IMG/VR virus record: IMGVR_UViG_2643221950_000001
Span: 1 to 64,000 of that record
DNA: 64,000 nucleotides
Source: an uncultured virus (IMG/VR IMGVR_UViG_2643221950_000001)
Taxonomy: Duplodnaviria > Heunggongvirae > Uroviricota > Caudoviricetes
Direction: 5' to 3' (one strand)
In this document: positions 26,070-45,474 of the stretch, one piece after another
Layout of the letters: the number at the start of each line of letters is the position of its first letter
Numbering within the stretch: position 1 is the stretch's first letter
Position numbers and translations under genes: made by a program
The notes under the pieces: model-generated
The model's input: the letters and a program-made list of their open reading frames with translations, nothing else
What the model was told of the DNA's origin: nothing
The model's database searches: none

Positions 26070-26318
26070 TCAAATTTCATCGTTCTTGAGTAAATACATT
26101 TCTAACTCAATGAGTTTTTTCAGATCTTCCACAGTAGTCAATTTGATGTTTCCTGCTTTGAAATCTCTGACCCATTGTGCAATACCTGCCTGCGTGATCT
26201 TTCTTAAATTCGCAGTGGCTTTCTCTATATCCTCAGCTTGTTCAGCCTGTAATAAAAGCAGCATTTCTTCTCTTTCTTCATCATAACGAGAACAAATGTT
26301 CTTATTTTCTCTTGTCAT
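26070..26318 (-). CDS. Hypothetical phage protein, 82 aa
   Basis: ORF with GGAGG/GGGAG RBS, directly upstream of terS. Confidence 0.7.
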   Translation of the reverse strand: MTRENKNICSRYDEEREEMLLLLQAEQAEDIEKATANLRKITQAGIAQWVRDFKAGNIKLTTVEDLKKLIELEMYLLKNDEI

Positions 26319-26346
26319 ACTCCCTGTCCTCCATTACAATATGGTT

Positions 26347-26457
26347 TGAGAGCGTGATATTTTCCCACAAACGCGGCCGCGTCTTGATCACGCTCTTAGG
26401 CAGGGAGCTTCTTTCTGTCTTTGAAGGGAGGGTGTTGTCAGCACCCTCTTTTTTTAT
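26347..26457 (+). ncRNA. Putative antisense sRNA, about 110 nt
   Basis: TTGTCA-17-TACAAT promoter (26312-26340); two hairpins; GAGGGTG...CACCCTC plus T-run terminator. Confidence 0.65.
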
Positions 26458-27744
26458 TTACAACGAGTCAACAAGCTCTGGAGTGATACCTGTGAATTCC
26501 GTGAATCGCTTTTTAATAACGTCACAGAAGTACGGATCAAGCTCTAATAAAAAAGCTTCTCTATCTGTTTGCTCACATGTCATAAGAGTTGACCCGCTTC
26601 CCCCAAAGAAATCCACCACTTTATCACCTTTTTTACTGCTATTACTCAATGGGATATTTATTAGCTCAAGTGGTTTTTGAGTTGGGTGTACATACTTTGA
26701 TGTGTCACCACGCGAAACCTCCCACACAGTTGCAGGACCAGTTTCTTCTGTCAAATCCGTTCTCCAAACTGTAGTTTGTTTTCTATCCCCGTACCAATTA
26801 GGGGAATAACCTCTTTTAAATGCGTAGAAAACAGGTTCATGCATATATCGGTATTGTGCCCAACCAAATGTCGGTGAATTTTTCACCCAAACGCATTGTG
26901 ATCTTATATCAATAGCAGCATTACGCATTTCATTTTCAAAAGCACGTTGATATGATGCAGCATGAAAAATATAGATAGCCGCCTTATCATCCATGATCCT
27001 TGAATAATTAAGAAAAATCTCTCTTAAAAATGAATCAAATTGATCATCATTCATCGAATCATTTAAGATCGATGCATGGCCATCATCTTTCAACTTCTTG
27101 CTATCACTTTTAACAGCCACATTATAAGGTGGATCAGTAATAACTAGATCGGCTTTATATCCCGACATTAGACGATCAACGTCAGCCGCTTTTGTGGCAT
27201 CACCGCATACTAAGGTGTGGCGGCCAAGCCGCCACACATCTCCATACTTTGTTTCAGGCTCACTGATTTGTGATAGAGCTTCAGAAACATCAAAGTCATC
27301 ATCTTCTACAACTGTATTTCCGTTGTCTACAGACAGGTTTTCTAGCAGCTCCTCATATTCTTCTTGAGAATACCCAATGATGTTTGTATCAAAATTGTTT
27401 TCCTTCAGCTCTGATAAAAGAGCCTCCAGTTTTTCCTCATCCCAATCGCCTTCAATTTTGTTTAATGCAATATTGAGCGCCTTTTCTTCTTTTTCGTTCA
27501 AAGAAACCACAGACACTTTGATTTCAGTTGGGTTCGATTCTAATAAAATTTTGAACCTTTGATGTCCACCTACTAAATTACCTGTCTTCTCGTTCCAGAT
27601 AAGCGGATCAATATATCCGAAATGCTCTATCGACGCTTTCAATTCTTCGTATGCTTTGTCACCTGGTTTCAGATCAACACGTGGATGATAGGCAGCGGGA
27701 TTTATTTGGCTGACGGGTATATCTTTTATGATCAATTGAAACAC
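26458..27744 (-). CDS. ParB-like domain fused to a beta-class N6A/N4C DNA methyltransferase
   Basis: N-terminal GGHQR; DPPY precedes HPTQKP and DFFGGSGST. Confidence 0.9.
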   Translation of the reverse strand: MFQLIIKDIPVSQINPAAYHPRVDLKPGDKAYEELKASIEHFGYIDPLIWNEKTGNLVGGHQRFKILLESNPTEIKVSVVSLNEKEEKALNIALNKIEGDWDEEKLEALLSELKENNFDTNIIGYSQEEYEELLENLSVDNGNTVVEDDDFDVSEALSQISEPETKYGDVWRLGRHTLVCGDATKAADVDRLMSGYKADLVITDPPYNVAVKSDSKKLKDDGHASILNDSMNDDQFDSFLREIFLNYSRIMDDKAAIYIFHAASYQRAFENEMRNAAIDIRSQCVWVKNSPTFGWAQYRYMHEPVFYAFKRGYSPNWYGDRKQTTVWRTDLTEETGPATVWEVSRGDTSKYVHPTQKPLELINIPLSNSSKKGDKVVDFFGGSGSTLMTCEQTDREAFLLELDPYFCDVIKKRFTEFTGITPELVDSL

Positions 27745-27766
27745 CTCTTGTATGATTTCATGTTGT

Positions 27767-28789
27767 TTACTTAAACCATTGCAAATGTATCTGTTCTGCG
27801 ATCCGTTTCATCATTACTGGAGGAACGCTCATACCGCATACATACTGCGTTGATGCATCCATAAAGTCATAATCCAACGGAAAAGATTGCATCAAAATAA
27901 TATCCCTTTTTGAGATGTAATATGGTTCGTCATATCTAATAAAGACAGAACCGCTCGCTAGTGTTGGCGGAACTAAACTGTTTTTAACTAATACTGTATT
28001 GAAATTCCGCTCTTTACCTTCTGTTCGTTTAGTTATGTCTCCAATGTTGCCGTCAGATGGCTGCCGCTTAATCCATCTTTTATACGTTTTACTCGATTCA
28101 TTCAGCCTTGACCCATGTCCACTTCTAAACTCTCCATATGTGATTGGTGGTTCATTGAAAGCCAATTTCAGTGGTGGTAAGTTCAAGTCCTTTCGGCGGC
28201 CAATGAAAAAGACCCGCTCTCTTCTCTGCGGGACTCCCATTGTGGCAGCGTTCAGCAAGAACAGCTGAACGTCATACCCTATTTCTTTTGCACGCTCTAT
28301 GACAAGTTTCACATACCCTTTAGCTTTTCCTTTGATCATGCCGCTTACGTTCTCAGCTACAAAGGTTTTAGGTTTCAAACGTTCCACAGCATCTAGGTAA
28401 TGAAAGAACAAATCGTCTAGTTTTTGGACAGCTTGGCCCTCTCTGAACGCCTTTTCTCTTCCCCAATCCTCTTCTCTTTTTCCGGCTGTTGAAAACACGC
28501 TGCATGGCGGCGATCCGTCAAACACATCAAGATTCATGAGTTCTTCAGGAAGATCGGAGAGCGGGATCTGATTAAACTCTCTAATGTCCATGAGATAAGG
28601 ATATTTCGGCTTGTGATTCTTTTTATAGATTTTCATCATTTGCGGATCGATCTCGCAGTTTCCCAGCAACTCAAACCCTGCTAATTTGTAGCCCATAGAT
28701 GAGCCACCACCGCATGAGAATGTACTGAACACTTTCAACCCATTGGAAGGGATGTTTTTAAGATCACTCAATTTCCATCTATAGTTCAT
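27767..28789 (-). CDS. Orphan C5-cytosine DNA methyltransferase
   Basis: FSCGGG, GSPPC, ENV, PQRRER motifs; no adjacent restriction endonuclease. Confidence 0.93.
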   Translation of the reverse strand: MNYRWKLSDLKNIPSNGLKVFSTFSCGGGSSMGYKLAGFELLGNCEIDPQMMKIYKKNHKPKYPYLMDIREFNQIPLSDLPEELMNLDVFDGSPPCSVFSTAGKREEDWGREKAFREGQAVQKLDDLFFHYLDAVERLKPKTFVAENVSGMIKGKAKGYVKLVIERAKEIGYDVQLFLLNAATMGVPQRRERVFFIGRRKDLNLPPLKLAFNEPPITYGEFRSGHGSRLNESSKTYKRWIKRQPSDGNIGDITKRTEGKERNFNTVLVKNSLVPPTLASGSVFIRYDEPYYISKRDIILMQSFPLDYDFMDASTQYVCGMSVPPVMMKRIAEQIHLQWFK

Positions 28790-28797
28790 GTCGTCAC

Positions 28798-29316
28798 CTA
28801 CTCATTGTATGCAAAACCGCATTTAGGACACGTATGTTCAAATTGATCGTCTCCAAAGTCATCTAAATCAATTTCTTTACTTTCAGATACAGTTCCACCT
28901 TGCCCTGTATGCTCCAGTTGCTGCAATATGTCCTCTAGTTCTGTATCACTGAATCCTGTTGCACTTAAATCATATCCTGATTTCTCTAGTTCCTTAATTA
29001 GCTCAGTGAGTTTGTATTCATCCCAATCACCATCTATCTTATTAAGGGCAATATTCAAAGCTTTTTCGTCTTGTTCATTAAGCGATACAACTGATACAAG
29101 AATTTCACTTGGATTGTCCTCCATCAATACCTTGAAACGTTGATGACCTCCTACAAGATGGCCAGTCCGTTCATTCCATACTAAGGGATCAATGTATCCA
29201 AATTTTTTTATTGAGTTTTTCAGAGAGTCGTATTCAGGATCTCCTGGTTGCAGATCAATTCGGGGGTTATATGGTGATGGGTTAATTTTATGTACGGGAA
29301 TTGTTTTGATGTTCAT
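28798..29316 (-). CDS. ParB/Srx N-terminal-domain protein with C-terminal CPKCG motif
   Basis: YNPR...GGHQR...ALNIALNKI; paralogous to the N-terminus of 26458..27744. Confidence 0.85.
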   Translation of the reverse strand: MNIKTIPVHKINPSPYNPRIDLQPGDPEYDSLKNSIKKFGYIDPLVWNERTGHLVGGHQRFKVLMEDNPSEILVSVVSLNEQDEKALNIALNKIDGDWDEYKLTELIKELEKSGYDLSATGFSDTELEDILQQLEHTGQGGTVSESKEIDLDDFGDDQFEHTCPKCGFAYNE

Positions 29317-29329
29317 CGCTGTTTCCTCC

Positions 29330-29366
29330 TATAAAAACAAATGATGCCGCCCTGAAGGCGGCATCA
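29330..29366 (-). terminator. Intrinsic terminator inside the late region
   Basis: Perfect TGATGCCGCC/GGCGGCATCA stem followed by TTTGTTTTT on the minus strand. Confidence 0.7.
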
Positions 29367-29371
29367 ACTGC

Positions 29372-29725
29372 TTACTTGATGTAAAATTCGCTAGTGTGGA
29401 ATGTTCCAAGGGTTGCAACATGATTGCCCTTTTTGTCATAGCGTTCTACGTCCACTCTGAATCGATAAGTGCCTTTCTTGTTACCGAATGATTCTTTGAT
29501 GTCAAATTGGTCATAAAGTTTTTCACCTGGGTTAAGCGGGTTCGGGGAATTTGTTTTAATTGTCTCCCACTTCCCATTAACCTTTCTTTGTGGAATAAGG
29601 TTGGGACCAGCACTAAAGTCGTTGTGGTTTTGCACCGCAATTCGTACGACCTTATCCTCTCCAATTTTGTGATTAGCTTTTGTCGGGTTCGCCGACACTC
29701 CAAATCCTGATGCCATGCTCATCAT
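29372..29725 (-). CDS. Hypothetical beta-rich (Ig-like?) protein without signal peptide
   Basis: GGGAG RBS; resembles the mature part of 32920..33330. Confidence 0.7.
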   Translation of the reverse strand: MMSMASGFGVSANPTKANHKIGEDKVVRIAVQNHNDFSAGPNLIPQRKVNGKWETIKTNSPNPLNPGEKLYDQFDIKESFGNKKGTYRFRVDVERYDKKGNHVATLGTFHTSEFYIK

Positions 29726-29806
29726 CTCCCTTTTTTATTTTTGCGCTCCTATCCCTCACCAAAGCACGTGCAGCCATACACCCAAAAGACGACTGTTCCC
29801 ATTAGG

Positions 29807-29986
29807 TTATCGTTTCCTCCGGATACGGCCCCCTTGTCTTTGATACGTTTCGCGTCTCGTTCCCATGATTTCTTCCCAATCTCGCTTTGTTATCGGATCA
29901 GCATCGCTCTTCTTACTATTAGAACCAGGAGCAATGCTTTTAAATTGCTTTAATGTCTCTTTAGAAACAGAATCCCTGATCTTCAT
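29807..29986 (-). CDS. Small basic hypothetical protein
   Basis: ATG after AAGGAG; DWEEIMG..R.TY.R..G.IR motif. Confidence 0.6.
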   Translation of the reverse strand: MKIRDSVSKETLKQFKSIAPGSNSKKSDADPITKRDWEEIMGTRRETYQRQGGRIRRKR

Positions 29987-30346
29987 TTCACTCGCTCCTT
30001 GCCGAATAAGCACCACCTTACGCTATTCGCTTAAATAGATTTTGATTTTGCAATGATGACTACACTCCGAGAGGATGCCAAGTACAGTCAATCATCAATT
30101 AAAATGAAAAACTGTCCTCGATACGGCTGCCGCAGACCAGCTGCTATCCAGGCTCAGAATGTCCCTCTCGTATGGCCACATTCCTCAACACCTTTGTTCC
30201 GTATCCAGATACGCCATTGATAAGGGAAAGGCGCGTCTCCCAATAAAAAAAGCGGACACCAATCAAGGCACTTAGAGTGCTCAATGATCAGCGTCCGCAG
30301 GTTCTTCCTTCTGGACAAAATATTCACGTTCGTTTTGCTTGTCTCT

Positions 30347-30410
30347 ATCATACGATGATCCACTTAGGAAAAAAGGTCCCCTTTTTATCCCCCTTTTTGT
30401 CGGTTTTTTC
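30347..30410 (-). promoter_or_regulatory. Putative activator-dependent late promoter
   Basis: -10 TATGAT without a good -35; upstream direct repeats AAAAACCGAC / AAAAAGGGGGAT / AAAAAGGGGAC. Confidence 0.55.
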
Positions 30411-30500
30411 AAAAGATATTTAAGTACCAAAAAGCCCTTACATATTTCTCCTTATCTAATATTATGTCATGATTACAATTTTTTTTAGGAGTGTGTTCAA

Positions 30501-31628
<1,128 letters not shown>

Positions 31629-31661
31629 TATTAAAGAATTGGCAAAGGCATGTGAGTAAAT

Positions 31662-32006
31662 ATGGCTAGAAACTGCGGATGCGGAAGAAGAGTTTATAAA
31701 GAAGGAGATTTCATTGTTAAAACGAGCTGCCCTGAAATCACTTTAGAAATTATCCAAAAGGAAGATTTGTGTTTTCAAGTTAAAGGAAAAGTATCATGCA
31801 ATACACTTCCTTTACAACATGTGAATGTAAATTTATCAAGTTCATCTGAAAGTATTTTAAAACCTCAAATATCTACTACTGATAAAGATGGAGGATTTTC
31901 ATCAGAATTAAATTTATTAGAGAATTCAGCCAAGGAAGTTGAAGTTACAGCAACTGTGATATCTAATAAATCACCTGTAAAAAAGTCAATAACAATCAAC
32001 TTTTAG
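31662..32006 (+). CDS. Hypothetical protein with Cys-containing N-terminus and Ig-like body; partner of the collagen-like gene
   Basis: MARNCGCGRR; TTDKDG.FS motif; co-oriented. Confidence 0.7.
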   Translation: MARNCGCGRRVYKEGDFIVKTSCPEITLEIIQKEDLCFQVKGKVSCNTLPLQHVNVNLSSSSESILKPQISTTDKDGGFSSELNLLENSAKEVEVTATVISNKSPVKKSITINF

Positions 32007-32056
32007 TTTTAAAACTTTTTCTAAAGATTAATAAAAGATACACTAAGATTTCTTAC

Positions 32057-32097
32057 AAAGAGAGGGGTTAATTTCACACTACCCCTACTCTTTTTCT
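32057..32097. terminator. Bidirectional terminator between the moron pair and arpU
   Basis: AAAGAGAGGGGT...ACCCCTACTCTTTT. Confidence 0.55.
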
Positions 32098-32120
32098 TAA
32101 AGACTTTACTCTTGCAGTAA

Positions 32121-32504
32121 TTAAATGATTCCAAGCGCTGTCGAAAGGTTAAACGTCGCTTGCTTTTTCAATTTGTAATACCGGTCCTTCTTCAGCCCCA
32201 ACTCTTCACATACCTCTAAATCTTTTACGAATCGTGATGAGAGATACTTCATGCGGATGATGTCTTGCTCAATTTCATCTAGGCTGTTTTCTAGCGCTCT
32301 TTCTATCTGTCGAACCTTCAGTTCATTTAAAACTTCCTGGTTCCTGAGAGAAGGAAAAAGGCCTGTTGCGCCGTTTGCCTGCTGTTCCTTTCTGTTTTCC
32401 TCCTTCACCTTAAGGGCCCTATAGACCTTCAGCTCCTTGATTAGAGCATTTCTTACTTGTTTCTCATCGATACCTGGCAGTAGACACAATTGTTCAGCTC
32501 CCAT
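32121..32504 (-). CDS. ArpU-family late transcriptional regulator
   Basis: IE.AL..SLD..E..II..KYL...K..YY..K..A...L..ALGII. Confidence 0.88.
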   Translation of the reverse strand: MGAEQLCLLPGIDEKQVRNALIKELKVYRALKVKEENRKEQQANGATGLFPSLRNQEVLNELKVRQIERALENSLDEIEQDIIRMKYLSSRFVKDLEVCEELGLKKDRYYKLKKQATFNLSTALGII

Positions 32505-32578
32505 GTTTCTCACCCTCCTTCTATAAACAATGAAAGACATAGACCAAGGCAATTTTGCACCGATCTATGTCGTATGAT

Positions 32579-32923
32579 TTATTCTTCTAATTGCTGAAAA
32601 GCTGATTCAATCTTTTCAAGAATCCCTTTTTCGATTTCAGTTAGCTTATGGCCGTGCATTTTTGTGTGTAGAATGTTGTCCTTGATAGCAACAAGTTCTG
32701 ATCTATCAAATTTGAAAAATCCTTTAAAGCAGTCAGGAAGAATATCTATTTCCACTTCGTCTCCAAAAACGTCTTCATGCAAGAAGAGAAACCATGTATC
32801 TTCGTGATGATGCTCCCCTCGTTCCAAAATGTCTTCTTTTGTTTCCGCGACTGTTTGGAGCAGAAAGCCGCTCTCGTTGATTAGTTTAGTTTCATCTGAT
32901 AGGTTTGATAATTTAATTGTCAT
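32579..32923 (-). CDS. Hypothetical phage protein
   Basis: ATG after GAGGTG overlaps the upstream stop. Confidence 0.65.
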   Translation of the reverse strand: MTIKLSNLSDETKLINESGFLLQTVAETKEDILERGEHHHEDTWFLFLHEDVFGDEVEIDILPDCFKGFFKFDRSELVAIKDNILHTKMHGHKLTEIEKGILEKIESAFQQLEE

Positions 32924-33932: not shown

Positions 33933-33934
33933 CT

Positions 33935-34476: not shown

Positions 34477-34477
34477 A

Positions 34478-35344: not shown

Positions 35345-35376
35345 TTTGACTGCCTCCCTGCAGGAGGAAGCTCCTG

Positions 35377-35580
35377 CTATTTTATTTTGTGTGAACTGCT
35401 GTAATTCAAATTGGTGAATTGGCCGTCACGTGTAGTGATTTCCGTTTTCCCGTAAATGGGTGCTTCGGCCAAAAATGCTTGATTGGAATGGCCATCTAGG
35501 ATAATGACTTTCACTTCTCCTTTGGTCATAAAGTTATCAATGGAGATGGTTGAGTCTGTAAGTTTGTAAGGATTCTTCAT
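35377..35580 (-). CDS. XtrA/YqaO-family protein
   Basis: GEVKVIILDG...EAP.YGKT.I.T..G. Confidence 0.8.
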   Translation of the reverse strand: MKNPYKLTDSTISIDNFMTKGEVKVIILDGHSNQAFLAEAPIYGKTEITTRDGQFTNLNYSSSHKIK

Positions 35581-35611
35581 GCGCACAAGGCCTCCCATGT
35601 TATAATGAATT

Positions 35612-35657
35612 GTCGAGATTCATTAGAGCCGGAGCCTTGTGCTTTGGTTCTTTTTAT
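35612..35657 (+). ncRNA. Putative short antisense RNA upstream of the xtrA-like gene
   Basis: Extended -10 TGtTATAAT (35598-35606); AGAGCC...GGTTCT plus T-run terminator. Confidence 0.5.
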
Positions 35658-35935
35658 TTGTCCAGAAAAGCTTGCAGATCACGTACGCACATTCTAAAGA
35701 GATGTTCATCATTTAAGTCTAAGGACAAATCGATCAGAGCCTTTAATTCATCTTTAGTGATCGTTACATCCAAGTTTTTAGCCCAATGTTTAGGAACAGC
35801 CGTAGACTTTCCTTTAGGCGGCTTCACTAAAAGTTCATATTCAGAGATTTTCACGACGTAACCAGATATATGAAACATTCTGCGATTAACTTCACCCAAA
35901 GCTTCCACCCAATCGCCTTCTACAATCTTTCTCAT
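35654..35935 (-). CDS. IDEAL-domain protein
   Basis: GDWV N-terminal SH3-like part; LIDLSLDLND...F. Confidence 0.78.
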   Translation of the reverse strand: MRKIVEGDWVEALGEVNRRMFHISGYVVKISEYELLVKPPKGKSTAVPKHWAKNLDVTITKDELKALIDLSLDLNDEHLFRMCVRDLQAFLDK

Positions 35936-36918: not shown

Positions 36919-36937
36919 ATTTTGTTCCTCCTAGTAA

Positions 36938-38288: not shown

Positions 38289-38296
38289 TCCTCATT

Positions 38297-39589
38297 TCAC
38301 ATTGCGGCTTCCATTTGCCGCGATAAATTTACAAACTTCCCGTACTCTTTCGCAAATGCTAAATTTACTGTTCCAGTCGCACCATTACGATGTTTAGCAA
38401 AAATGATTTCAATAATATTTTTAGATTCGCTTTGCTTGTCATAATAGTCGTCACGATAGAGGAACGTAACAATATCAGCATCCTGCTCGATGCTTCCAGA
38501 ATCACGTAGATCGGACAACATCGGACGCTTATCTTGTCGCTGCTCTACTCCACGTGAAAGCTGAGATAACAGAACAATTGGAACCTCAAAATGCCTGGCC
38601 ATAAGCTTTAATTCTCGTGTTATTTCCGCAACTTCATGGTTTTTACTTTCTGGTTTCCCAATAGGAGTGATCAACTGTAAATAGTCAATGATCACTAAAT
38701 GATCTTGATCAGGGTGTTCGTTCTTGGTTTTTCTAATTCTAGAACGAATATCAGCAACGGTTTGAGATGGCTTATCATGAATATGAATATCCAGGTTTTC
38801 ATATACGCCCATTGCTTTAAAGGAGTTCTCATGATCATCCTCACTAAAGAATTTTTTTGGATTTCTCCACTTAGTGTTCTCGATTCTTCCGATGTTGCTT
38901 AACATCCGATGTGTCAATTGTGTATCAGACATCTCAAGGGAAAAAATATCAGTTACACCTTTTTTATAAGCATTGTTAATAGCTAGATTTAGTGCAAAAG
39001 CGGTTTTCCCCACTGATGGTCGCGCAGCCACAATGATCAAATCACTTTTTTGCAGACCGCCTGTCATAGCATTAAGGTCTGCTAGACCAGTGTCTACTCC
39101 AGTGACATCACCTTTTTCTTCTTCCAAACTCATGAAGATTTCTGTCAAAACATCTGTTTTCGTTCGGGTTGTAGTTACACCCACTTCCTGCACTTCAATG
39201 GTCTTTTTATAAAGATCTGTGATGCCTTCATCGCATGGGGAGTTAGCAAAAGCTAAAGCCGCACTTTGTAAATCTCTAAGTCTAAAAGCATCGTAGATTA
39301 GAGTTTCATAAGTTCCAAAAGAATGTATTGAGGGAACAGAACTTGCTAAGTTAGTTAAGTATTCGAATCCCCCAACAGCCGCTAAGGCTTCACCCAAGGA
39401 AGCTGATATATTTGCTAGTTCAACCTGTCTGCCTAGCTTGTCCACTTCCCTCATCGCTTTAAAAATCTGTTTATGTCGTTCCTCAGCAAAATGTTTGGGC
39501 TCAAGTGTAGTTTCTTTGATAAGGTCGCCCTCAATGATGATACAACCCAATAAAAACTGTTCAGCCTCTACGTTTCGCAAATTTTGCAT
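38297..39589 (-). CDS. Replicative DnaB-family helicase
   Basis: AARPSVGKT, IDYLQL, LSQLSR, LRDSGSIEQDAD. Confidence 0.95.
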   Translation of the reverse strand: MQNLRNVEAEQFLLGCIIIEGDLIKETTLEPKHFAEERHKQIFKAMREVDKLGRQVELANISASLGEALAAVGGFEYLTNLASSVPSIHSFGTYETLIYDAFRLRDLQSAALAFANSPCDEGITDLYKKTIEVQEVGVTTTRTKTDVLTEIFMSLEEEKGDVTGVDTGLADLNAMTGGLQKSDLIIVAARPSVGKTAFALNLAINNAYKKGVTDIFSLEMSDTQLTHRMLSNIGRIENTKWRNPKKFFSEDDHENSFKAMGVYENLDIHIHDKPSQTVADIRSRIRKTKNEHPDQDHLVIIDYLQLITPIGKPESKNHEVAEITRELKLMARHFEVPIVLLSQLSRGVEQRQDKRPMLSDLRDSGSIEQDADIVTFLYRDDYYDKQSESKNIIEIIFAKHRNGATGTVNLAFAKEYGKFVNLSRQMEAAM

Positions 39590-39857
39590 TTCTTACCCAC
39601 TCTTCCTGCTTCTCTAGAAATTCATTTTTCTCTGGTTGGTTGACCTGTATCTCAGCAATGACAGGTGGGAATCGTTTTTCAGCGATATGTTGATTGATCT
39701 TTTTTAAAACAGGTTCATATGGCAGTGCAGTTAAATGCTCTAGCCAAAGCCTGATTCTTTCTTTTCCGATCGCATCTGTAGAAAGTTCAAATCTAGGGTA
39801 GGCAGCAGCTATCCTTGTTAAGATAGCCATCGCTTGGTCCTTTGTCATGCTAATCAT
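39561..39857 (-). CDS. Helicase loader/inhibitor, SPP1 G39P-like
   Basis: I..AYP...W...L...FPP.IAEI; lies between initiator and helicase. Confidence 0.8.
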   Translation of the reverse strand: MISMTKDQAMAILTRIAAAYPRFELSTDAIGKERIRLWLEHLTALPYEPVLKKINQHIAEKRFPPVIAEIQVNQPEKNEFLEKQEEWVRNAKFAKRRG

Positions 39858-40702
39858 CCTCCTCCAAATTTAATGCCATTTTCTTTTGCATAAGCCTCTA
39901 ATACTGATAGGTTGTCTTGTTGTCTCTTTGGTTTAAATTCAGATATGTTGCTAGGTGGATTTTGTTTAGCATGCCATCTATCAAGGATGCCCTTCTCCAG
40001 GTAAGAAAACGATTTGATGCCGTCCGCTCTATGTCTTGGTCGGTATTGATCGAATATCTCGTCGATCCACACCAATATGTCTTCAAGGGGTATCTGCTCC
40101 TGAATGATCCTCTCAATGGCCTGTGCATCATTAGGAGTGATCATCAATCCTCCACCTCTTCGTGATAGATACTTGTCTTCGATTTGTTGGAAAGGAGAAT
40201 CATTTCCTACTGGCGATCTCTCTTCTTCCTCTTCTTTATATTCTTTAATTCTTGAATTCTTTAATTCTTGTTTTGGTTCTGCAATCGTTCCGCAATCGTT
40301 CTGCAATCGTTCCGTTGAAGGTTCATTAGCCGTTCTGTAATTAGAATTGTTTTGACCGTCTAAGCCTTGGTATGACTCGTATTTCACTATGGTGAATAGT
40401 GTTCCAATATCCGTTTCGCAAACGGTGACCATACCGTTCTCAACAAGTTTCTTTATGGAACGTAAAATTGTACTTTTAGATACTTTTTTCAGGGCTCTTC
40501 GTTCCTTATAACCAAGGTCCTCACACAACTTAGAATAGGAGCGGATATACTGACCCTTCTTCAATTCAATGCCGTTAATTTTGATCCCGTCTTGATGGCT
40601 TGCTTTCAATAACAACAATGTAAAAAGCCTAAAAGTAGTAACATCATTCCAGATTTCATGATCAAATATCTTTCGATGTAGTTTAATCCATCCAGTAGAC
40701 AA
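39854..40702 (-). CDS. Replication initiator
   Basis: GWIKLHRK N-terminus; internal iterons; DnaD-like C-terminus. Confidence 0.87.
   Translation of the reverse strand: MSTGWIKLHRKIFDHEIWNDVTTFRLFTLLLLKASHQDGIKINGIELKKGQYIRSYSKLCEDLGYKERRALKKVSKSTILRSIKKLVENGMVTVCETDIGTLFTIVKYESYQGLDGQNNSNYRTANEPSTERLQNDCGTIAEPKQELKNSRIKEYKEEEEERSPVGNDSPFQQIEDKYLSRRGGGLMITPNDAQAIERIIQEQIPLEDILVWIDEIFDQYRPRHRADGIKSFSYLEKGILDRWHAKQNPPSNISEFKPKRQQDNLSVLEAYAKENGIKFGGG
40241..40312. repeat. Probable phage replication origin
   Basis: Three 11-bp repeats (T/C)GCAATCGTTC at 40280-40312 next to a duplicated TTCTTTAATTCTTG. Confidence 0.75.
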
Positions 40703-40721
40703 ACAAATTCCTCCTTCCCAA

Positions 40722-40907
40722 CTATTTGCGTTTGAGTCTACAAATAGCGTATTTGCCTTTGATGTCGATCAATTCGAGATGCGGTTCATACTTGGCCATA
40801 TATGTCGTGATATACATCATCAATACCTTTTTCCGCATTTGCGGAGCGGCTGACATCGCCAACGTAATAAAACAATAAGGATAAGCTGTTTTAAAAAGCT
40901 CGCTCAT
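40722..40907 (-). CDS. Hypothetical protein
   Basis: Coupled ORF in the operon. Confidence 0.6.
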   Translation of the reverse strand: MSELFKTAYPYCFITLAMSAAPQMRKKVLMMYITTYMAKYEPHLELIDIKGKYAICRLKRK

Positions 40908-41608
40908 AAGGGAACATAGACAACCTTTCCTGTTTCTTTTGCTATTTCTTGTTTGAATAGTTGCTCATCACTGTTTGTGTCAGATAGGTGCAATAACCAT
41001 ATTTCCTGCACTTTTGACAAGTCATTTGCAGCTAGGAATGTCTTTACATTCTCAAGGCTGAAATGCGACTGGATGAGCCGGTTACGCATGCTTTTGTGAA
41101 TACTCCCATTCTCAATATTTGCATCCAAGATTGCTTCAGAATAATTGCACTCAACCATGATGTGCGTGAGTCCAGGGAACTTGTATTTGATGTAATAGGT
41201 ATCAGTAGCAAAGAGGAGCTTGTCTCCGTCTTCATTAGCCAATAGGAAGCCATACGGCTCTGATACGTCGTGTTGAACATCAAAGGGCATAATAAGCCAC
41301 GTGCCGACCCTAAATGTTTGTCGGGCTTTTACAAGATTGATTCTGTGATGATTTTCCACTCCAAGAGCTTGTGCCGTCCCAAGAGACATATAACAATCGA
41401 TTCCTGCACGCAAAACATCTTTTATAGCCTTGCAGTGATCACCATGCTCATGAGTGATGAGACAACCAGCAAAGCTCATATCGAAATCAAAAGCACGTTG
41501 CATCTCTTTGAAAGTGATACCGCACTCCAAAAGGAGCGGGGTTTTACCATCAGTCACCCGATAGCAATTCCCCTTACTGCTTGACGAGATAGCTTCGATC
41601 TCAATCAA
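40904..41608 (-). CDS. Metallo-beta-lactamase-fold hydrolase (probable exonuclease)
   Basis: SSS.GNCY, THEHGDH, HD, TDT, HLS motifs. Confidence 0.9.
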   Translation of the reverse strand: MIEIEAISSSSKGNCYRVTDGKTPLLLECGITFKEMQRAFDFDMSFAGCLITHEHGDHCKAIKDVLRAGIDCYMSLGTAQALGVENHHRINLVKARQTFRVGTWLIMPFDVQHDVSEPYGFLLANEDGDKLLFATDTYYIKYKFPGLTHIMVECNYSEAILDANIENGSIHKSMRNRLIQSHFSLENVKTFLAANDLSKVQEIWLLHLSDTNSDEQLFKQEIAKETGKVVYVPL

Positions 41609-42528
41609 AATGGTGGCTCCTCATTCAATGCAGAAGGCTTTTCATCATGTCCATTTGATGATTGTGGCTCAGGCTCTTCACGTTGCTTTATTTCAGGTGT
41701 TTCTTGGTGCTGTTCTGAATCTTCTTCAGGTTCATTGAAACCAACATCAATAATTTCTGAATTAGCATTCTCACTAATTTCTTTTTTCACTTCATCCGGT
41801 GTAACATCAACCCGCTCATTGTCATACTCATTCTCGGTTGAATTATTGATTGCTTGGACAAGTAGATCGCTGTCATCGCTTGTGTTTATATATCTTTTGG
41901 CAGCACGATTAATCACTGTTCTTTGGGCCATTTCCTGCGGAAACTTTTTCTGAACCGCACCACTTGTTTTCGATTGACTCCAAGCAGTTTCGATTTCTTT
42001 CTTTGTCATCGGGGTTAGTAGCTCAATGTCATCAATGGTTTTTACAACTGCATAAGCTCCAATGATGTCTTTATCTCGGTTTTCAAGCTTCGTTTCATGT
42101 TTAATAAGTTTTTCTTGCCCTCCATCAATCTCATATTCAAAGACATCCCCTTCATAAATCACGTTTGACCATATATCCTTGACATTGGTCAAACGTTTCA
42201 GCACTGCTTGTGTGCCAAAATATGAGCGGTTCATCTGCAATTTATTCCCGTACACAATGAAATAACATTGAGTTTTTGCAGGGCTTAAACCTTGAACGAC
42301 CATATCTAGCAAGGAATTGGCAATAGATTCTCTGGTGCAGACTTCTAAAGCAGGCCTCCCTGATTTATCCTTCACTTCTTGAAGTTTAAAAAATGCACTC
42401 TTTAATGCATTGCTAGCATTATAGTTTGATGGCAGGACTAACCCTTCATCTTGTAATCTGCCTAGACTATTGTTCACATCATCAGTAATGTTTTTTTGTA
42501 TATGTGCCAATTGATTCTGATTACTCAT
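41605..42528 (-). CDS. recT: RecT-family single-strand annealing protein
   Basis: QGLSPAKTQCYFIVYG; EMA..TV..RA.K. Confidence 0.88.
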   Translation of the reverse strand: MSNQNQLAHIQKNITDDVNNSLGRLQDEGLVLPSNYNASNALKSAFFKLQEVKDKSGRPALEVCTRESIANSLLDMVVQGLSPAKTQCYFIVYGNKLQMNRSYFGTQAVLKRLTNVKDIWSNVIYEGDVFEYEIDGGQEKLIKHETKLENRDKDIIGAYAVVKTIDDIELLTPMTKKEIETAWSQSKTSGAVQKKFPQEMAQRTVINRAAKRYINTSDDSDLLVQAINNSTENEYDNERVDVTPDEVKKEISENANSEIIDVGFNEPEEDSEQHQETPEIKQREEPEPQSSNGHDEKPSALNEEPPF

Positions 42529-42766
42529 CCGTATCCTCCTCATAAATAAATCTGACCTTTTTGCCTTTATGCTCTCTTAGAAAGGTCTTTAGCATTTCAG
42601 CAAAATCCGATGGACCTTTTAAGTCTCTTTCCAAGATTGCATCTTCAGGACATTCAGAAAGCGGGCGAACGTCCATGACCTGTTTACCATCAATCAGAAG
42701 TTTTTCACGTTTGCAATCTTCCCAACCTATACCTGAAAGAACTTTCACCTCTACCACTTCACTCAT
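42521..42766 (-). CDS. Hypothetical protein
   Basis: Coupled ORF; ECPEDA.L.RDL motif. Confidence 0.7.
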   Translation of the reverse strand: MSEVVEVKVLSGIGWEDCKREKLLIDGKQVMDVRPLSECPEDAILERDLKGPSDFAEMLKTFLREHKGKKVRFIYEEDTDE

Positions 42767-44745
42767 GCGATCACCTCACAATCTACAGTCAGCAAGTTGT
42801 CATCAGTTTCAACTCGCAGCTGCTTGTCTGGTTTGGAAACTATCAAGCTGATAACTTGTGCATTGACTTCTATCAGATCAGTAACCGCCTCGCTGTTATC
42901 AACGAAGATCGGCGCAGAAATACCATAATGCTCATTTAACGTATTAATGATGTCTAAACCGACATTAATACGTGCCGCATTGTTTAGACCTTTAGAGTAA
43001 GGCACGCCTTCATAAAGCGTTTCACAGGTTTCTGTTAAACCGCCGTTGACTTGCTCTTCAAAGAGCTTGAAGCGGGCAAATTTGAATTTGCTGTTTATCT
43101 GTTCTTCCATAAGGTTCATTTTGGTGCGTATAAACTCCTCAATGAGATAAGTTTCTTGTTCTACTTCGTTATATTCATCAGCCATTTTACGTTCTTCTTC
43201 CTTTAGCTCCTCAATTCGGTTGAGGGCTTTTTGAGCTTGATCGATGCGAGAAAGATCATTGCGGATCAAGGTCATTTCCTGCTGTTTTCCCTTGATCTGT
43301 TCATTAATGGCTTGAACAGTTCCACTTGTCTCCTGCTCACCAGACTGGATCTCGTTATTGATCTTTTCAAGCTCCTCTACCTTGGCTAGATACTTTGGAT
43401 TATCGGAAAGCGGAGCAATGGACGCTTCAGCTTGCTCCATATCTTCTTTCAGTTTTTCAACGGCTGCTGTCGTAAATTTCTCTTCCAAGATCAAAAGCTG
43501 AATCTTCTCATCAACCTCGTATAACTCGTTCTGCTTATTGTCATATTCAATCCCTAATTGCTTTCCCTTATCGACTATGCGCTCTAGGGATTCACTTTTT
43601 TGTAAATTGAATTTCTCAATAGCAGCTTGAATTTTTTCTTTTGGCAATGCCTGTCCACATGTTGGACAATCTGTTTGATGATCCTCAAACGATTCTTCGT
43701 ACTTTTTAGACCATTCTTCTCGCAACTCAAAGCGCTCTTTATCTATTTGAGATAGAAAAGATGTTAAGTGCTCTTTCTTCGTGATCAAATTACTGAGATC
43801 ATTCTGGATTTGAGAAAGATCGTTTTTCGCTTTGTAGTAGGCTTCTTTTTTCTCATTCACTACCTGAAATCTTTTTGAGTCATACTCATTCATAATTTGT
43901 TGCAGATCGCCTTCGAGCTGAAGCATACGCTTCTTTCTATCTGCTCCTGCATCCACTCTGATAGAGCGGGCTTCTTTCTCCAGATGATCTATCGATGTTT
44001 GGAGTGCTTTTAAATCTTCTTTCAATTGCTCCTGGTCTATATCCGTTACATCTTCAATAGAACGATTGATTTCGTCAATCCTGACTGGAAATTGCTCTAG
44101 GAGTTTAGTGATCTTTTTACGTTTTTCAGCAAGTATGCTCTTTTGTTCATCGAGACTTCTTTCATCTAAGATTGAATAGAGATCGGATAAAGAACTGTTC
44201 TTTTTAATTACGTCCTCATCAGTCACAGCTCCGCCGATCTCCATGAGTACGCCCAAACGATCCTGCCACTTCATCTGTTCATTGAAATAAGAAGGAGAAG
44301 TTATCAGTTTAAAAATATCCTCAGAGATGATCTCATTGACCTTCTCAGCAAACTCTTTTTTCTTAACTGGTACACCATTCACATGATAATTGGTGGTATG
44401 GCCAGAAAAGACTTGCTTTGCTGATCCCCGTTTCTTGGTCCATTTCTCTGAATAGACCTTTTTCAATTCGACAGACTTTCCGTCGATTAAGAGTACAGCC
44501 GATACCTCATGATCAACGCCGCTTACCGCTTTGTTATCTTTTGAGAGCGTCTTGATCTCAAAGTCTTTTTTGTTTTGACTATCTTTATCAAAGAGCAGCC
44601 ACATGAAAGCATCAAATAACGTTGTTTTGCCTGTAGCGTTATCACCATAGACCTTTGCACTTTCTCCACCTGTTTCAAGGGTGAATGATTTTACACCCTT
44701 GAAATTCGATAGATGGAGTTCTGCCAACCTGATATTTTTGGTCAT
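42763..44745 (-). CDS. SbcC/Rad50-like AAA ATPase with coiled coil and zinc hook
   Basis: NFKG, GDNATGKTT, CPTCGQ, PIFVDN.E. Confidence 0.88.
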   Translation of the reverse strand: MTKNIRLAELHLSNFKGVKSFTLETGGESAKVYGDNATGKTTLFDAFMWLLFDKDSQNKKDFEIKTLSKDNKAVSGVDHEVSAVLLIDGKSVELKKVYSEKWTKKRGSAKQVFSGHTTNYHVNGVPVKKKEFAEKVNEIISEDIFKLITSPSYFNEQMKWQDRLGVLMEIGGAVTDEDVIKKNSSLSDLYSILDERSLDEQKSILAEKRKKITKLLEQFPVRIDEINRSIEDVTDIDQEQLKEDLKALQTSIDHLEKEARSIRVDAGADRKKRMLQLEGDLQQIMNEYDSKRFQVVNEKKEAYYKAKNDLSQIQNDLSNLITKKEHLTSFLSQIDKERFELREEWSKKYEESFEDHQTDCPTCGQALPKEKIQAAIEKFNLQKSESLERIVDKGKQLGIEYDNKQNELYEVDEKIQLLILEEKFTTAAVEKLKEDMEQAEASIAPLSDNPKYLAKVEELEKINNEIQSGEQETSGTVQAINEQIKGKQQEMTLIRNDLSRIDQAQKALNRIEELKEEERKMADEYNEVEQETYLIEEFIRTKMNLMEEQINSKFKFARFKLFEEQVNGGLTETCETLYEGVPYSKGLNNAARINVGLDIINTLNEHYGISAPIFVDNSEAVTDLIEVNAQVISLIVSKPDKQLRVETDDNLLTVDCEVIA

Positions 44746-44791
44746 GAACAAGCCTCCATTGATTTACAGTGCCAACCTGCTATAATAGGGG

Positions 44792-44848
44792 TTGACACTT
44801 TTATTTTCTTTTTTTGTAATTGGTTCACTTGTGGGAGTGAACCTTTTT
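44792..44848 (+). ncRNA. Putative short antisense RNA upstream of the ATPase gene
   Basis: TTGATT-16-TATAAT with TG extension (44759-44786); GGTTCAC/GTGAACC plus T-run terminator. Confidence 0.5.
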
Positions 44849-45065
44849 AATTTGCATTCACAAATTTGAAGTCAAGTTTCTCCTTCAAATAGCGGTTCAA
44901 ATTGTCTAAGAGGATCATTTCTCCAACATTCTCATCAATGACGTATTCATCATTTGAGAAAATCTCATCCCCGAAGTAGTCAGTTCCAACAACATCAACC
45001 ACTTCAACGCCCTTTGGGTATCCAGTGGCATTTATTTGAGTGATCATTGGATGTTCAATGTTCAC
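44847..45065 (-). CDS. yqaI: YqaI-family protein
   Basis: IEHPMI.QI..TGYP...D.FGDEI. Confidence 0.75.
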   Translation of the reverse strand: MNIEHPMITQINATGYPKGVEVVDVVGTDYFGDEIFSNDEYVIDENVGEMILLDNLNRYLKEKLDFKFVNAN

Positions 45066-45259
45066 GTTAAAACACCAACCTTTCTTCGGATCGCATCGGC
45101 TTTGAGCTTTTTGAATTTCTCAAAAGCCTCTTGATTAGGGAAATAGAAGTGCGGATTTCCATTGTTGTCCATGAGAATGGAGCCATTTACTTTAGATAGT
45201 CTTACTTGGTCGCCAGTGTGATCACTGAATGGTTGTATAACCGCTTTTTCAAAAAACAT
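45062..45259 (-). CDS. Hypothetical protein
   Basis: AGGAGG RBS. Confidence 0.7.
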   Translation of the reverse strand: MFFEKAVIQPFSDHTGDQVRLSKVNGSILMDNNGNPHFYFPNQEAFEKFKKLKADAIRRKVGVLT

Positions 45260-45417
45260 AATCTTCTTCCTCCTATGATTTATTGATGCTTATTCGCATC
45301 GTCCGACTGCGGATGGTGCATGATTTGAGGGGATGGGGTGTGTGCGCATTGTCCATCCGCAAGCCGGACGACAAGAATAAAACTTGTCGTGCTCTTTAAA
45401 GAGCGATATAATAAATT

Positions 45418-45474
45418 CGATCATTTCGATATTCGATTTAAGCAGTGAGTGTAGGAGCTTGCTGCTTTTTTCTT
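45418..45474 (+). ncRNA. Putative short antisense RNA
   Basis: TTGTCG-17-TATAAT (45384-45412); AAGCAGTGAG/CTTGCTGCTT plus T-run terminator. Confidence 0.55.

Follow-up and report, generated by a model that had tools for sequence, protein, structure and literature searches.

Four short units on the plus strand of the analysed DNA, each lying opposite the leader of a minus-strand lytic gene, have the appearance of genuine small antisense transcription units that evolved separately and share a single layout. The window (the whole stretch analysed, 64,000 nucleotides) is a provirus of the Bacillus pumilus group whose minus strand carries the lytic genes, and the gaps between these genes house all four sites. 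Promoters and terminators were observed there together with their conservation in relatives and, at two sites, clamps that hide the Shine-Dalgarno sequence (SD); transcripts have been observed at counterparts in the skin prophage. It is plausible, though in our judgement somewhat short of probable, that the four units are cis-antisense RNAs like lambda oop or P22 sar, which would filter leaky lytic mRNA by duplex-directed decay.

Promoter-terminator cassettes in the gaps between lytic genes

At each of the four sites, a plus-strand sigma-A-type promoter was followed by an intrinsic terminator 44-111 nt further on, and the scan thereby bore out the initial annotation, which had placed such a pair opposite the leader of a minus-strand gene in every case. 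The predicted RNAs of sites 1-4 were 111, about 44-45, 56 and 54 nt long, and the four plus-strand hairpins (-12 to -16 kcal/mol) were each followed by a T-run. None of the four predicted RNAs covered the SD, every start lying at least 14 nt upstream of it in the sense direction. The gaps were not richer in AT (0.54-0.64) than the region (0.59), and they had no similarity to one another beyond 7-9-nt words.

Promoters and terminators were scanned for on both strands of positions 26000-45900. This range contained 26 promoter-like matches, fewer than its shuffles (44.6, sd 5.9); five of them reached 10/12, three of which were the plus-strand promoters of sites 1, 3 and 4. When cassettes were sought on both strands of the whole window, seven were found, namely the four sites, tRNA-Ala, an SR4-like antitoxin RNA antisense to a BsrG match, and one weak match; as the scan recovered tRNA-Ala and the antisense partner of BsrG, the method finds known small RNA genes. 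The promoter-terminator pairs at the four sites are not due to chance. A fifth plus-strand terminator-like hairpin (35360..35377), located in the 32-nt gap after the XtrA-like gene, had no convincing promoter upstream of it in the scan. With Rfam 15, the whole window yielded only BsrG and one tRNA at the gathering threshold, the best score in E-value scans of the sites was 21.8 bits against a gathering score of 52, and eight related loci, including L109, gave zero matches.

Across 32 related loci (L003-L034), 50 cassettes were found on the antisense strand vs 2 on the sense strand, and 109 antisense terminators vs 17 sense, counts that include close relatives and do not represent independent events. 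When the antisense strand was locally dinucleotide-shuffled twice, 5 and 3 cassettes and 30 and 32 terminators were obtained, which places the cassettes at more than 10 times the shuffle expectation. The -10, the -35 and the 17-nt spacing were retained in homologues whose flanks diverge, and the intergenic elements were more conserved than the neighbouring genes. Terminator hairpins showed a strand asymmetry of 38/40, a figure biased by the choice of hairpins on that strand.

Antisense promoters and sense leaders at the individual sites

At site 1, upstream of the 82-aa gene and the terminase block, the antisense promoter TTGTCA-17-TACAAT (26312..26340, plus strand; 10/12 match) is placed on the translation signals of the 82-aa gene, its -35 covering the start codon and its spacer the SD. 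It is kept in homologues, and throughout the 22 aligned sequences the -10 is TACAAT or TAGAAT. The predicted RNA of ~111 nt (26347..26460, plus strand, from the cassette scan), whose start was inferred ~7 nt past the -10, comprises a 5' hairpin (26349-26396), a linker and the intrinsic terminator (26423..26453, plus strand), a 13-14-pair stem of -16.2 kcal/mol followed by a T7 run. The hairpin and linker are conserved in the aligned homologues, the terminator is present in 20/22 of them, and the element family (model R2) occurs in 18/49 genomes of the genus. On the minus strand, the sense leader folds into a clamp (26319..26408; fold z -5.5) in which GCUCCCUGCCU (26398-26408) pairs with the SD and spacer AGG-A-CAGGGAGU (26319-26332). 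The clamp surrounds the core hairpin at 26349-26396, which is invariant in 22 sequences.

At site 2, the scan found no -35 element before the XtrA-like gene; an extended -10, TGTTATAAT (35598..35606, plus strand), adjoins the SD complement of this gene instead. It is identical in 15/15 loci and also occurs in L094 and L099, which are intermediates between the window type and more distant forms. The predicted RNA of about 44-45 nt (35613..35659, plus strand), the positional counterpart of ncr1159 (50 nt), ends in an intrinsic terminator (35625..35651, plus strand) whose 11 pairs include four G:U pairs as read on the plus strand; in the variants L056, L059 and L062, inspected by eye, all 11 pairs are intact on the plus strand only. 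The sense leader again forms a clamp (35583..35642, minus strand), indicated by folding, duplex shuffles and covariation, with GCACAAGGCUCC (35631-35642) pairing with the SD and spacer GGAGGCCUUGUGC (35583-35595).

The initial annotation had described an anti-SD able to pair with the ribosome-binding site at all four sites. When each site was compared with 500 dinucleotide shuffles, this held at site 1 (duplex -20.2 kcal/mol, z -2.33, p 0.024) and site 2 (-22.4 kcal/mol, z -3.06, p 0.008), and failed at sites 3 (z +0.72) and 4 (z +0.31), where the pairing was not above chance. Minimum-energy folds gave the same split. The SD-sequestering leader is a feature of sites 1 and 2 only. In the homologues examined, the proposed pairing covaries at site 2 and in part at site 1. 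The site 2 clamp reached p <= 0.01 in all eight lineages; it reads GCAGCAC:GUGCUGC plus CCCC:GGGG in L094 and AAGCGC:GCGCUU plus CCUC:GGGG in the skin counterpart (G042), and the cognate pairs are the most stable ones for the SD regions of both. Judged from this covariation across eight lineages, the predicted SD-sequestering helix at site 2 is real. Compensatory change was weaker at site 1, with two clamp pairs altered on both sides, only in the three related sequences L140-L142.

Another reading, the switch of the initial annotation restricted to sites 1 and 2, is one that we regard as possible but unlikely: the sense leader would be clamped shut, and the antisense RNA would pair with the 5' strand of the clamp or guide its removal, thereby freeing the SD and activating the 82-aa/terminase and XtrA-like blocks. 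The significance and conservation of the clamps, the different pairing sequences that maintain them at site 2 and the compensatory changes at site 1 are in favour of such unlocking, and the antisense RNA spans exactly the clamp 5' strand and not the SD. Moreover, the site 1 element is unchanged in form behind other upstream genes (L043, L049), and its clamp strand lies ~50 nt past the upstream stop codon, so that a terminating ribosome could not open the clamp. At site 2, however, the upstream stop codon is located ~10 nt before the clamp strand, and plain translational coupling could therefore suffice to open the clamp without an antisense RNA. Since sites 3 and 4 lack the clamp, unlocking cannot be what all four sites have in common. 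It would also be hard to see why an activator should be abundant in the silent lysogen, and the phage antisense RNAs oop, sar, c4 and aQ (PMC12197685) and the Bacillus prophage antitoxin RNAs (PMC8464778) act negatively according to the available text of two reviews.

At site 3, the promoter TTGATT-16-TG-TATAAT (44759..44786, plus strand; 10/12 match) has a -35 that adjoins the SD complement of the SbcC-like gene, and an inverted repeat (44768-44777/44790-44799) flanks its -10. The predicted RNA of ~56 nt (44793..44850, plus strand) is the counterpart of ncr1160 and ends in a terminator hairpin with a T-run (44822..44843, plus strand). A cassette of the same layout adjoins the SbcC-like start in 20 of the 32 related loci, and these cassettes fall into about seven sequence families, unrelated by eye; some of the loci counted here are close relatives of one another.

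It is improbable, in our estimation, that the transcription event rather than the RNA is what matters, through interference or a roadblock facing the lytic promoter, with terminators that only keep polymerase out of the upstream genes. The promoters of sites 1-3 overlap or adjoin the SD and start codon, close relatives differ in the body of the RNA, from its start to the terminator, but retain promoter and terminator, and the inverted repeat around the -10, found in the window type, L012, L023, L027 and L034 (z <= -3), could be an operator. In contrast, a polymerase travelling ~50 nt offers little collision cross-section, the 5' hairpin and linker of the site 1 RNA are conserved, and the skin RNAs have the highest read counts in their candidate table (Irnov 2010), which suggests stable products. 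Still less credible to us are trans-acting or protein-binding small RNAs with host or other phage targets, for which the antisense position would be incidental. Sequence conservation does exceed what cis-antisense pairing needs, as in the invariant site 1 core, and the elements are better conserved than the adjacent genes; however, the repetition of one layout by unrelated sequences at a single gene junction fits a position-bound cis function, and the RNA bodies of sites 3 and 4 are variable among relatives.

At site 4, the promoter TTGTCG-17-TATAAT (45384..45412, plus strand; 10/12 match) is represented in 11/11 homologues by TTG(T/C)CG, a 17-nt spacer (spacing by eye) and a -10 of TATAAT, or TACAAT in L119. 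The cassette scan predicted an RNA of ~54 nt (45419..45474, plus strand) with a terminator (45440..45467, plus strand) whose 11 pairs include three G:U pairs as read on the plus strand. The CUCCUA loop, named in the initial annotation as the anti-SD of this site, gives way to loops of the CCGGCA type in L009, L123 and L124, while L122 has yet another sequence there. The sense strand carries a structured leader (model R1; 45269..45406, minus strand), which had been absent from the initial annotation; its four covarying helices end at the SD of the 65-aa gene, and one of them is a variable-loop stem of 16-17 pairs (about 45295-45372), with 9/16 stem pairs altered on both sides. The leader was found in 15/49 genomes of the genus. 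A type I toxin reading frame was considered at this site and rejected: the sole small frame (45290-45424, 44 aa) is not hydrophobic by eye, shows indels of a non-multiple of three among close relatives and has no PHROG match.

Such sense-strand structure, which is real at sites 1 and 2 as well, raises the question of whether the plus-strand signals are by-products of sense-strand or DNA elements (mRNA hairpins, a protein site or, at site 1, a packaging site) that yield no stable antisense RNA here. The site 1 core, which is invariant, in part palindromic and located upstream of the terminase genes, could act as a DNA site, and the RNA data consist only of unstranded contigs of a related prophage at about 92-93% identity, besides two raw-read runs without the prophage. 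We nevertheless consider this very unlikely, in view of the T-runs, -35/-10 spacing and -10 hexamers retained in L123/L124, where sense helix 1 of site 4 is lost, the excess of cassettes over shuffles, and the primary transcripts mapped at the skin counterparts (Irnov 2010).

Counterparts in the skin prophage and a proposed role

The initial annotation knew of no description for skin/PBSX-type phages, without excluding one; such an absence is not supported, as the skin RNAs ncr1159 and ncr1160 are already in print as unnamed candidates. With 352 and 920 cDNAs, respectively, they are the top two candidates of Table 2 in a study using TSS-selective dRNA-seq (Irnov 2010, NAR 38:6637). In the available text of that study, they are outside the set verified by Northern blot and have no assigned function, and the layout, clamp and recurrence are not reported (Irnov 2010). 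Our scan of G042 predicted three plus-strand cassettes in 9 kb, two of which coincide with ncr1159 and ncr1160, and the published 5' ends lie 7 nt (ncr1159) and 4 nt (ncr1160) past the -10. As in the window, both RNAs (50 and 70 nt) are read from the strand opposite to the lytic genes on either side (/-/+/-/). The yqaN-yqaO gap, ahead of an XtrA-like gene, holds ncr1159 (the site 2 junction), and the yqaI-yqaJ gap, ahead of recombination genes, holds ncr1160 (the site 3 junction). An extended -10 beside the SD complement and an intrinsic terminator follow in the same order as at sites 2 and 3, the equivalent of the site 2 element being TGTTATGAT; the motif TGTTAT(A/G)AT beside the SD complement is common to both by eye, and the SD clamp also occurs in skin. 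In contrast, the sequences appear to differ, by eye, outside the promoter and SD motifs, and the downstream recombination gene is YqaJ-like in skin and SbcC-like in the window. A search of G042 with models R1 and R2 detected nothing that corresponds to sites 1 and 4. As the coordinates of ncr1159 and ncr1160 fall on cassettes of the site 2 and site 3 types, the antisense RNAs are very likely real and had been seen earlier without a function.

Returning to the filtering of leaky mRNA, each intercistronic gap would hold a very short cis-antisense RNA gene with a host sigma-A promoter and an intrinsic terminator. The promoter lies on or beside the ribosome-binding site of the downstream lytic gene, and the RNA would head away from this site over the upstream leader and stop where the preceding gene ends. 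Production of the RNAs would take place in the silent prophage, as is known for the skin counterparts alone. Transcription in the window phage is part of what we infer, as are pairing, cleavage and the direction of the effect: by perfect pairing with the intercistronic leader of any lytic transcript, a 45-110-bp duplex would form and mark the polycistronic mRNA for double-strand-specific (RNase III type) cleavage and decay. Leaky lytic transcripts would be removed up to the point at which, on induction, sense transcription overtakes the antisense RNA and occludes the promoter of that RNA. The conserved clamp hides the SD at sites 1 and 2; as the antisense RNA can base-pair with the clamp's 5' strand, pairing must also alter SD access there, either by opening it or by destruction of the message. 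The SD clamping at these two sites and the strong primary-sequence conservation, as in the site 1 core, are left unexplained by a leakiness filter. In favour of such a filter, skin lytic genes are nearly silent in growing cells (Rasmussen 2009), and derepression of the skin early genes is lethal (Durand 2012, discussion). Against it, the available text of one study on B. subtilis strains without skin describes RNase III cleavage of mRNAs as mostly independent of antisense RNA (DiChiara 2016).

A broader proposal, which we offer as speculative and rather doubtful, is that, in skin-like Bacillus prophages, antisense "keys" expressed in the lysogen form a genome-wide set, one per intercistronic lytic leader, of which ncr1159 and ncr1160 would be the first members observed. 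Together with the SD clamps and long sense stems, they would form a post-transcriptional timing and threshold device for lytic development, in which the leader would be unlocked or processed by pairing and not just silenced. In lambda, P22 and P1, antisense RNAs are textbook regulators; to our knowledge, those in temperate phages of Gram-positive bacteria have barely been described. The words Bacillus and Gram-positive are absent from the available text of a 2025 review on phage small RNAs (PMC12197685), and that of a 2021 review covers ten characterised cis-antisense systems in B. subtilis, none of them in a lytic operon (PMC8464778). Through the present results, ncr1159 and ncr1160 gain a place in a conserved family that has a defined layout and also, at one of the junctions, an SD clamp that covaries; their function can thereby be tested directly in a standard laboratory strain. 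The conserved RNA elements R1 and R2, both new and without an Rfam family, are also added.

Comparison with known antisense systems

The four units resemble cis-antisense small RNA genes in that each has its own promoter on the strand opposite the target and encodes a predicted short RNA whose 3' end is an intrinsic terminator. GadY of E. coli is a cis-antisense small RNA in an operon intergenic region, and its pairing directs the processing of a polycistronic mRNA. It is chromosomal, Gram-negative and single copy, and processing stabilises its products. The window RNAs share the intergenic operon position with GadY; a role in processing would be hypothetical for them.

Among phage RNAs, lambda oop is also short, has its own promoter and terminator in the early region of a temperate phage, is antisense to the last part of a gene together with the intergenic stretch behind it, and works with RNase III on the overlapped mRNA (PMC12197685). 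In its Gram-negative host, oop reduces cII, whose 3' end it overlaps (PMC12197685), whereas the window RNAs overlap the leader of the next gene, are several per genome and have a predicted effect. P22 sar is likewise a small antisense RNA with its own terminator, transcribed from an intercistronic promoter (arc-ant) facing a sense promoter, and controls a downstream gene (PMC12197685); unlike sar, which covers and blocks the ant ribosome-binding site, the window RNAs stop short of the SD and cover the upstream leader.

A further likeness within Bacillus is to RatA, SR4, SR5 and SR6, prophage-encoded cis-antisense RNAs made in the lysogen, which pair with prophage mRNA and lead to RNase III-type decay or altered SD access (PMC8464778). 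These RNAs overlap the mRNA of a small hydrophobic toxin tail to tail (PMC8464778), in contrast to the window RNAs, whose putative targets are operon leaders with no toxin reading frame. A type I pair of this kind, the BsrG match and its antisense cassette, is present in the window itself at 14000-14300.

Antisense promoter–terminator cassettes in the lytic operons

The window spans the initial 64 kb of an IMG/VR provirus record that is 77 kb long, and PHROG matches together with the ORF map indicated a temperate siphophage-type prophage, whose near relatives occur in genomes entitled Bacillus xiamenensis, B. safensis, B. pumilus and B. zhangzhouensis. In addition to an integrase gene with an adjoining tRNA-Ala (48513-49967) and a divergent switch near 46738/46851, it carries a minus-strand early operon encoding an SbcC-like ATPase (42763-44745), RecT-like, DnaD-like, DnaB-like, RuvC-like and HNH proteins and a late activator (32121-32552), and a minus-strand block that contains ParB/methyltransferase genes together with an 82-aa gene (26070-26318) and the terminase genes. 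Amid these lytic genes lies a plus-strand insert (30501-32006) that looks moron-like; it encodes a 375-aa protein matching collagen-like tail-fibre PHROG families and a 114-aa ORF, and is flanked by a strong minus-strand terminator (30297-30253) and a plus-strand terminator (32059-32091). Past tRNA-Ala, positions 50000-64000 hold a second phage-like minus-strand block with ORF sizes parallel to those of the tail region (2300-13300), which may be a second, PBSX-like element adjoining the prophage.

Four gaps of 139, 73, 101 and 178 nt separate minus-strand genes at sites 1 (about 26312-26457, leading into the 82-aa gene), 2 (35591-35657, XtrA-like gene), 3 (44753-44848, SbcC-like gene) and 4 (45268-45474, a 65-aa gene). 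The initial annotation had described a plus-strand promoter and terminator in each of them, with a shared layout and no mutual homology, and both points held: a plus-strand hairpin and T-run follow the promoter at each site, and no homology was found among the four, the promoter of site 2 being recognized by an extended -10, TGTTATAAT, without a -35. The predicted RNAs measure about 111, 45, 56 and 54 nt at sites 1-4 and would start near 26347, 35613, 44793 and 45419, respectively. A consensus scan gave five 10/12 promoter matches in 26000-45900, three of which are the plus-strand promoters of sites 1, 3 and 4, and promoter-like matches of all kinds were rarer there than expected (26 vs 44.6 in shuffles). 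The idea that AT-rich gaps had produced chance promoters was rejected, the gaps being no AT-richer than the region.

When both strands of the whole window were scanned for a promoter followed by a terminator within 10-130 nt, seven cassettes were obtained, namely sites 1-4, the tRNA-Ala gene, a cassette antisense to a BsrG match and a weak one at 52657-52804. Recovery of the tRNA-Ala gene and of the cassette opposite BsrG, an SR4-like antitoxin RNA, shows that the method detects those small RNA genes of the window that are already known. The BsrG match (Rfam, 159 bits, plus strand, 14000-14262) lies inside the structural gene block opposite the minus-strand cassette 14299-14146, and the 14000-14300 region has the appearance of a bsrG/SR4-like type I toxin-antitoxin pair. 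The antisense strand of 32 related loci yielded 50 cassettes and 109 terminators, the sense strand 2 and 17. When the antisense strand was shuffled twice, with dinucleotides preserved inside 150-nt blocks, the counts fell to 5 and 3 for cassettes and to 30 and 32 for terminators. Many of these loci are mutually related, so the counts are not independent. Terminator hairpins were more stable on the antisense strand in 38/40 cases, a bias not counted as evidence because the hairpins had been selected on that strand. Among public RNA runs, two contig-only sets contain pieces of a related prophage and are unstranded, and two raw-read runs with the same species label lack the prophage.

Clamped ribosome-binding sites and conserved elements at sites 1 and 2

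The initial annotation had also placed, in every leader, an anti-SD segment able to pair with the Shine-Dalgarno (SD) sequence of the downstream gene. The duplex of the upstream segment with the SD region was compared with 500 dinucleotide shuffles of the upstream segment, and such a clamp stood out at site 1 (-20.2 kcal/mol, z -2.33, p 0.024) and site 2 (-22.4 kcal/mol, z -3.06, p 0.008) but not at site 3 (-8.9 kcal/mol, z +0.72) or site 4 (-10.0 kcal/mol, z +0.31), neither of which was significant. Minimum-energy folds agree with this split, and the anti-SD loop CUCCUA proposed for site 4 is not preserved in four related loci (L009, L122, L123 and L124). All four predicted antisense RNAs leave the SD uncovered, covering the leader upstream of it instead.

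At site 2, TGTTATAAT is preserved in 15/15 loci fetched via the XtrA-like protein. Three loci (L056, L059 and L062) carry terminator variants with G:U to A:U, C:G to U:G and G:U to G:C changes at several stem positions, which keep 11/11 pairs on the plus strand against 3-4 A-C mismatches in the sense mirror (by eye); this pattern points to selection acting on the plus-strand RNA. The expected conservation of the anti-SD/SD pairing in homologues was borne out here, with p <= 0.01 in every one of the eight lineages tested, and in the two most distant ones, L094 and the skin-prophage genome G042, the clamp is written in different letters with its own SD region as best partner. In xtrA loci of the PBSX type, the SD directly adjoins the upstream gene and no cassette is present; the feature is a trait of skin-like and window-like phages, not of PBSX. 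A 32-nt gap contains a fifth hairpin that resembles a plus-strand terminator (35360-35377; GCAGGAGGAAGCTCCTGC plus a T-rich tail); relatives have conserved it, and the region upstream of it holds no convincing promoter.

The site 1 element accompanies the 82-aa gene behind differing upstream genes (L043, L049), is about 97% identical where that gene is about 75% identical (by eye), and was found with a model of the element (R2) in 18/49 genomes of the genus. In 22 aligned homologues, the core hairpin (26349-26396), with the palindrome ACGCGGCCGCGT, shows zero variation and its flanks vary; the antisense -10 is TACAAT or TAGAAT, and two clamp pairs are changed on both sides, only in three related sequences, CCUGG:CCAGG replacing CUCCCUG:CAGGGAG. 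Core conservation exceeds what structure alone needs; the invariant, partly palindromic core, which precedes the terminase genes, possibly serves for protein binding or for packaging. The gene for the terminase small subunit is immediately preceded by a stretch of about 50 nt (26024-26069, AACAAACTCAAACTTAATTCAGCAGCTCGGAGG...) that nearly all related loci retain (about 2450-2500 in L035-L050), even where the neighbouring gene is inverted. This stretch may be an activator-dependent late promoter, in which case site 1 would lie upstream of a late promoter.

The clamps bear on the main rival to the function that we propose below, namely the switching model of the initial annotation, confined to sites 1 and 2, in which the antisense RNAs would unlock the clamped SD. 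Clamp geometry speaks for unlocking, and at site 1 the clamp strand is beyond reach of a terminating ribosome; at site 2, plain translational coupling could open the clamp. Overall we consider unlocking somewhat unlikely.

Antisense units and sense-strand structure at sites 3 and 4

For site 3, 33 loci were fetched via the SbcC-like protein. In L004-L008, which are close relatives, the promoter, the terminator and an inverted repeat flanking the -10 are all retained and the stretch between them varies. Relatives at a greater distance, with 35-50% protein identity, are unrelated in sequence but show the parts in identical order: on the sense strand, a stop codon, an A-run, a GC hairpin, 20-40 nt, the complement of the -10 (often TGnTATAAT) and the complement of the -35 abutting the SD. 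A cassette was present at the start of the SbcC-like gene in 20/32 loci, in about seven unrelated sequence families (by eye). In several unrelated sequence families, seen in the window (44768-44799), L012, L023, L027, L034 and L109, an inverted repeat encloses the antisense -10 and its start site close ahead of the SD; z is <= -3 in five families, and the nine loci of the L011 group lack such a hairpin. Scoring enclosure of the -10 as yes or no (21/21) was discarded as trivial, the information lying only in the z-scores. The repeat may serve as an operator; alternatively, it may form a hairpin in the sense mRNA that would become 5'-terminal once the message is cleaved. Six loci (L011, L014, L017-L019 and L022, about 2830-2950) contain a region of about 120 nt separating two tandem antisense cassettes, with a 15-pair stem (AAGCAG...CUGCUU), a smaller hairpin, by-eye covariation and sense-strand U:G pairs; it had no Rfam match.

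The site 4 gap is more conserved than both flanking genes. A type I toxin-antitoxin system was rejected here, as the 44-aa frame is not conserved, being judged disrupted by indels whose lengths are not divisible by three. Site 4 holds a conserved structured sense-strand leader with strong covariation (45269-45406, minus strand; also in L110-L125), comprising four helices, with a 16-17-pair stem and a variable loop, and a sense-strand covariance model (R1) located it in 15/49 genomes of the genus. In the R1 alignment of 20 sequences (18 distinct), which is model-fitted and hence favours the structure, 98.4% of cells pair, compared with 35-51% when partners were slid; in the 16-pair long stem, both partners differ at nine pairs, and G:U pairs are numerous. 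A role as an RNase III cleavage site or in stabilising the 5' end is possible for the leader.

The initial annotation had read site 4 as an antisense unit and missed this separate leader; its promoter and terminator proved to be conserved. The promoter (TTG(T/C)CG, 17-nt spacer, -10 TATAAT or, in L119, TACAAT) and the terminator were each found in 11/11 homologues. The cassettes might be by-products of sense-strand or DNA elements, which we regard as very improbable: in L123 and L124 the antisense promoter persists where sense helix 1 is lost. Judged from these sequences, the promoter is a feature distinct from the sense leader.

Skin prophage transcripts and the proposed function

The initial annotation knew of no description in skin-type phages, but two such RNAs are in print without a function. 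In the part of the TSS-selective dRNA-seq study of stationary-phase B. subtilis considered here (Irnov et al., 2010; PMC2965217), the skin RNAs ncr1160 (70 nt, 920 cDNAs, between yqaJ and yqaI, /-/+/-/) and ncr1159 (50 nt, 352 cDNAs, between yqaO and yqaN, /-/+/-/) are the first two entries of Table 2 and exceed the other rows considered in cDNA count; that part assigns them no function and places them outside the eleven Northern-tested RNAs. We applied the printed coordinates (2,692,882-2,692,931 for ncr1159 and 2,697,037-2,697,106 for ncr1160) to the G042 record, where both antisense -10 elements fall in non-coding DNA. The 5' end of ncr1159 falls 7 nt past TGTTATGAT, which adjoins the SD complement of the XtrA-like gene (2,692,648-2,692,815), and its 3' end in the T-run of a hairpin. 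The 5' end of ncr1160 falls 4 nt past TGATAAAAT (-35 TTGTTT, 17-nt spacer) and is bracketed by a 9-bp inverted repeat; its 3' end falls at a terminator immediately preceding a 319-aa gene that opens the recombination block. A blind scan of a 9-kb G042 stretch gave three plus-strand cassettes, two of which are ncr1159 and ncr1160.

The signals and their conservation, the clamps, the sense-strand leader and the transcripts at the skin counterparts are shown. We infer that the window's own units are likewise transcribed and pair with lytic mRNA, and we tentatively favour a post-transcriptional filter as the consequence. Antisense RNAs would be produced in the lysogen and pair with leaky operon transcripts, marking these for duplex-specific cleavage; on induction, sense transcription would titrate the antisense RNAs and overrun their promoters. 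That the RNA itself has no role and its synthesis acts by transcriptional interference seems improbable to us, and trans-acting RNAs are highly unlikely. Precedents for the filter, in the sections of the reviews considered, are prophage antitoxin RNAs with RNase III in the same host (PMC8464778) and oop and sar in other phages (PMC12197685); those sections do not mention units of the ncr1159/ncr1160 type. Skin lytic genes are described as almost silent in growing cells (Rasmussen 2009), derepressed skin early genes are reported in a discussion section as lethal to the cell (Durand 2012), and the RNase III mapping work, in the part considered, used strains without skin (DiChiara 2016).

A blastn search of deposited phage genomes gave no match to sites 1-4, the SbcC-like gene alone having a distant match, and an Rfam search of the sites and eight related loci found no family for them. 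Literature searches of open-access main texts on ncr1159/ncr1160, the skin yqaJ antisense, skin RNase III and phage antisense RNAs returned no functional study and no comparative account of such units. What the present analysis adds is the link to the skin RNAs, the covariation of the clamp and a pair of new conserved RNA elements. The mode of action proposed for the window units is that of lambda oop, P22 sar and type I antitoxin RNAs; unlike these, they end before reaching the SD, occur several per genome and are not accompanied by a toxin frame.
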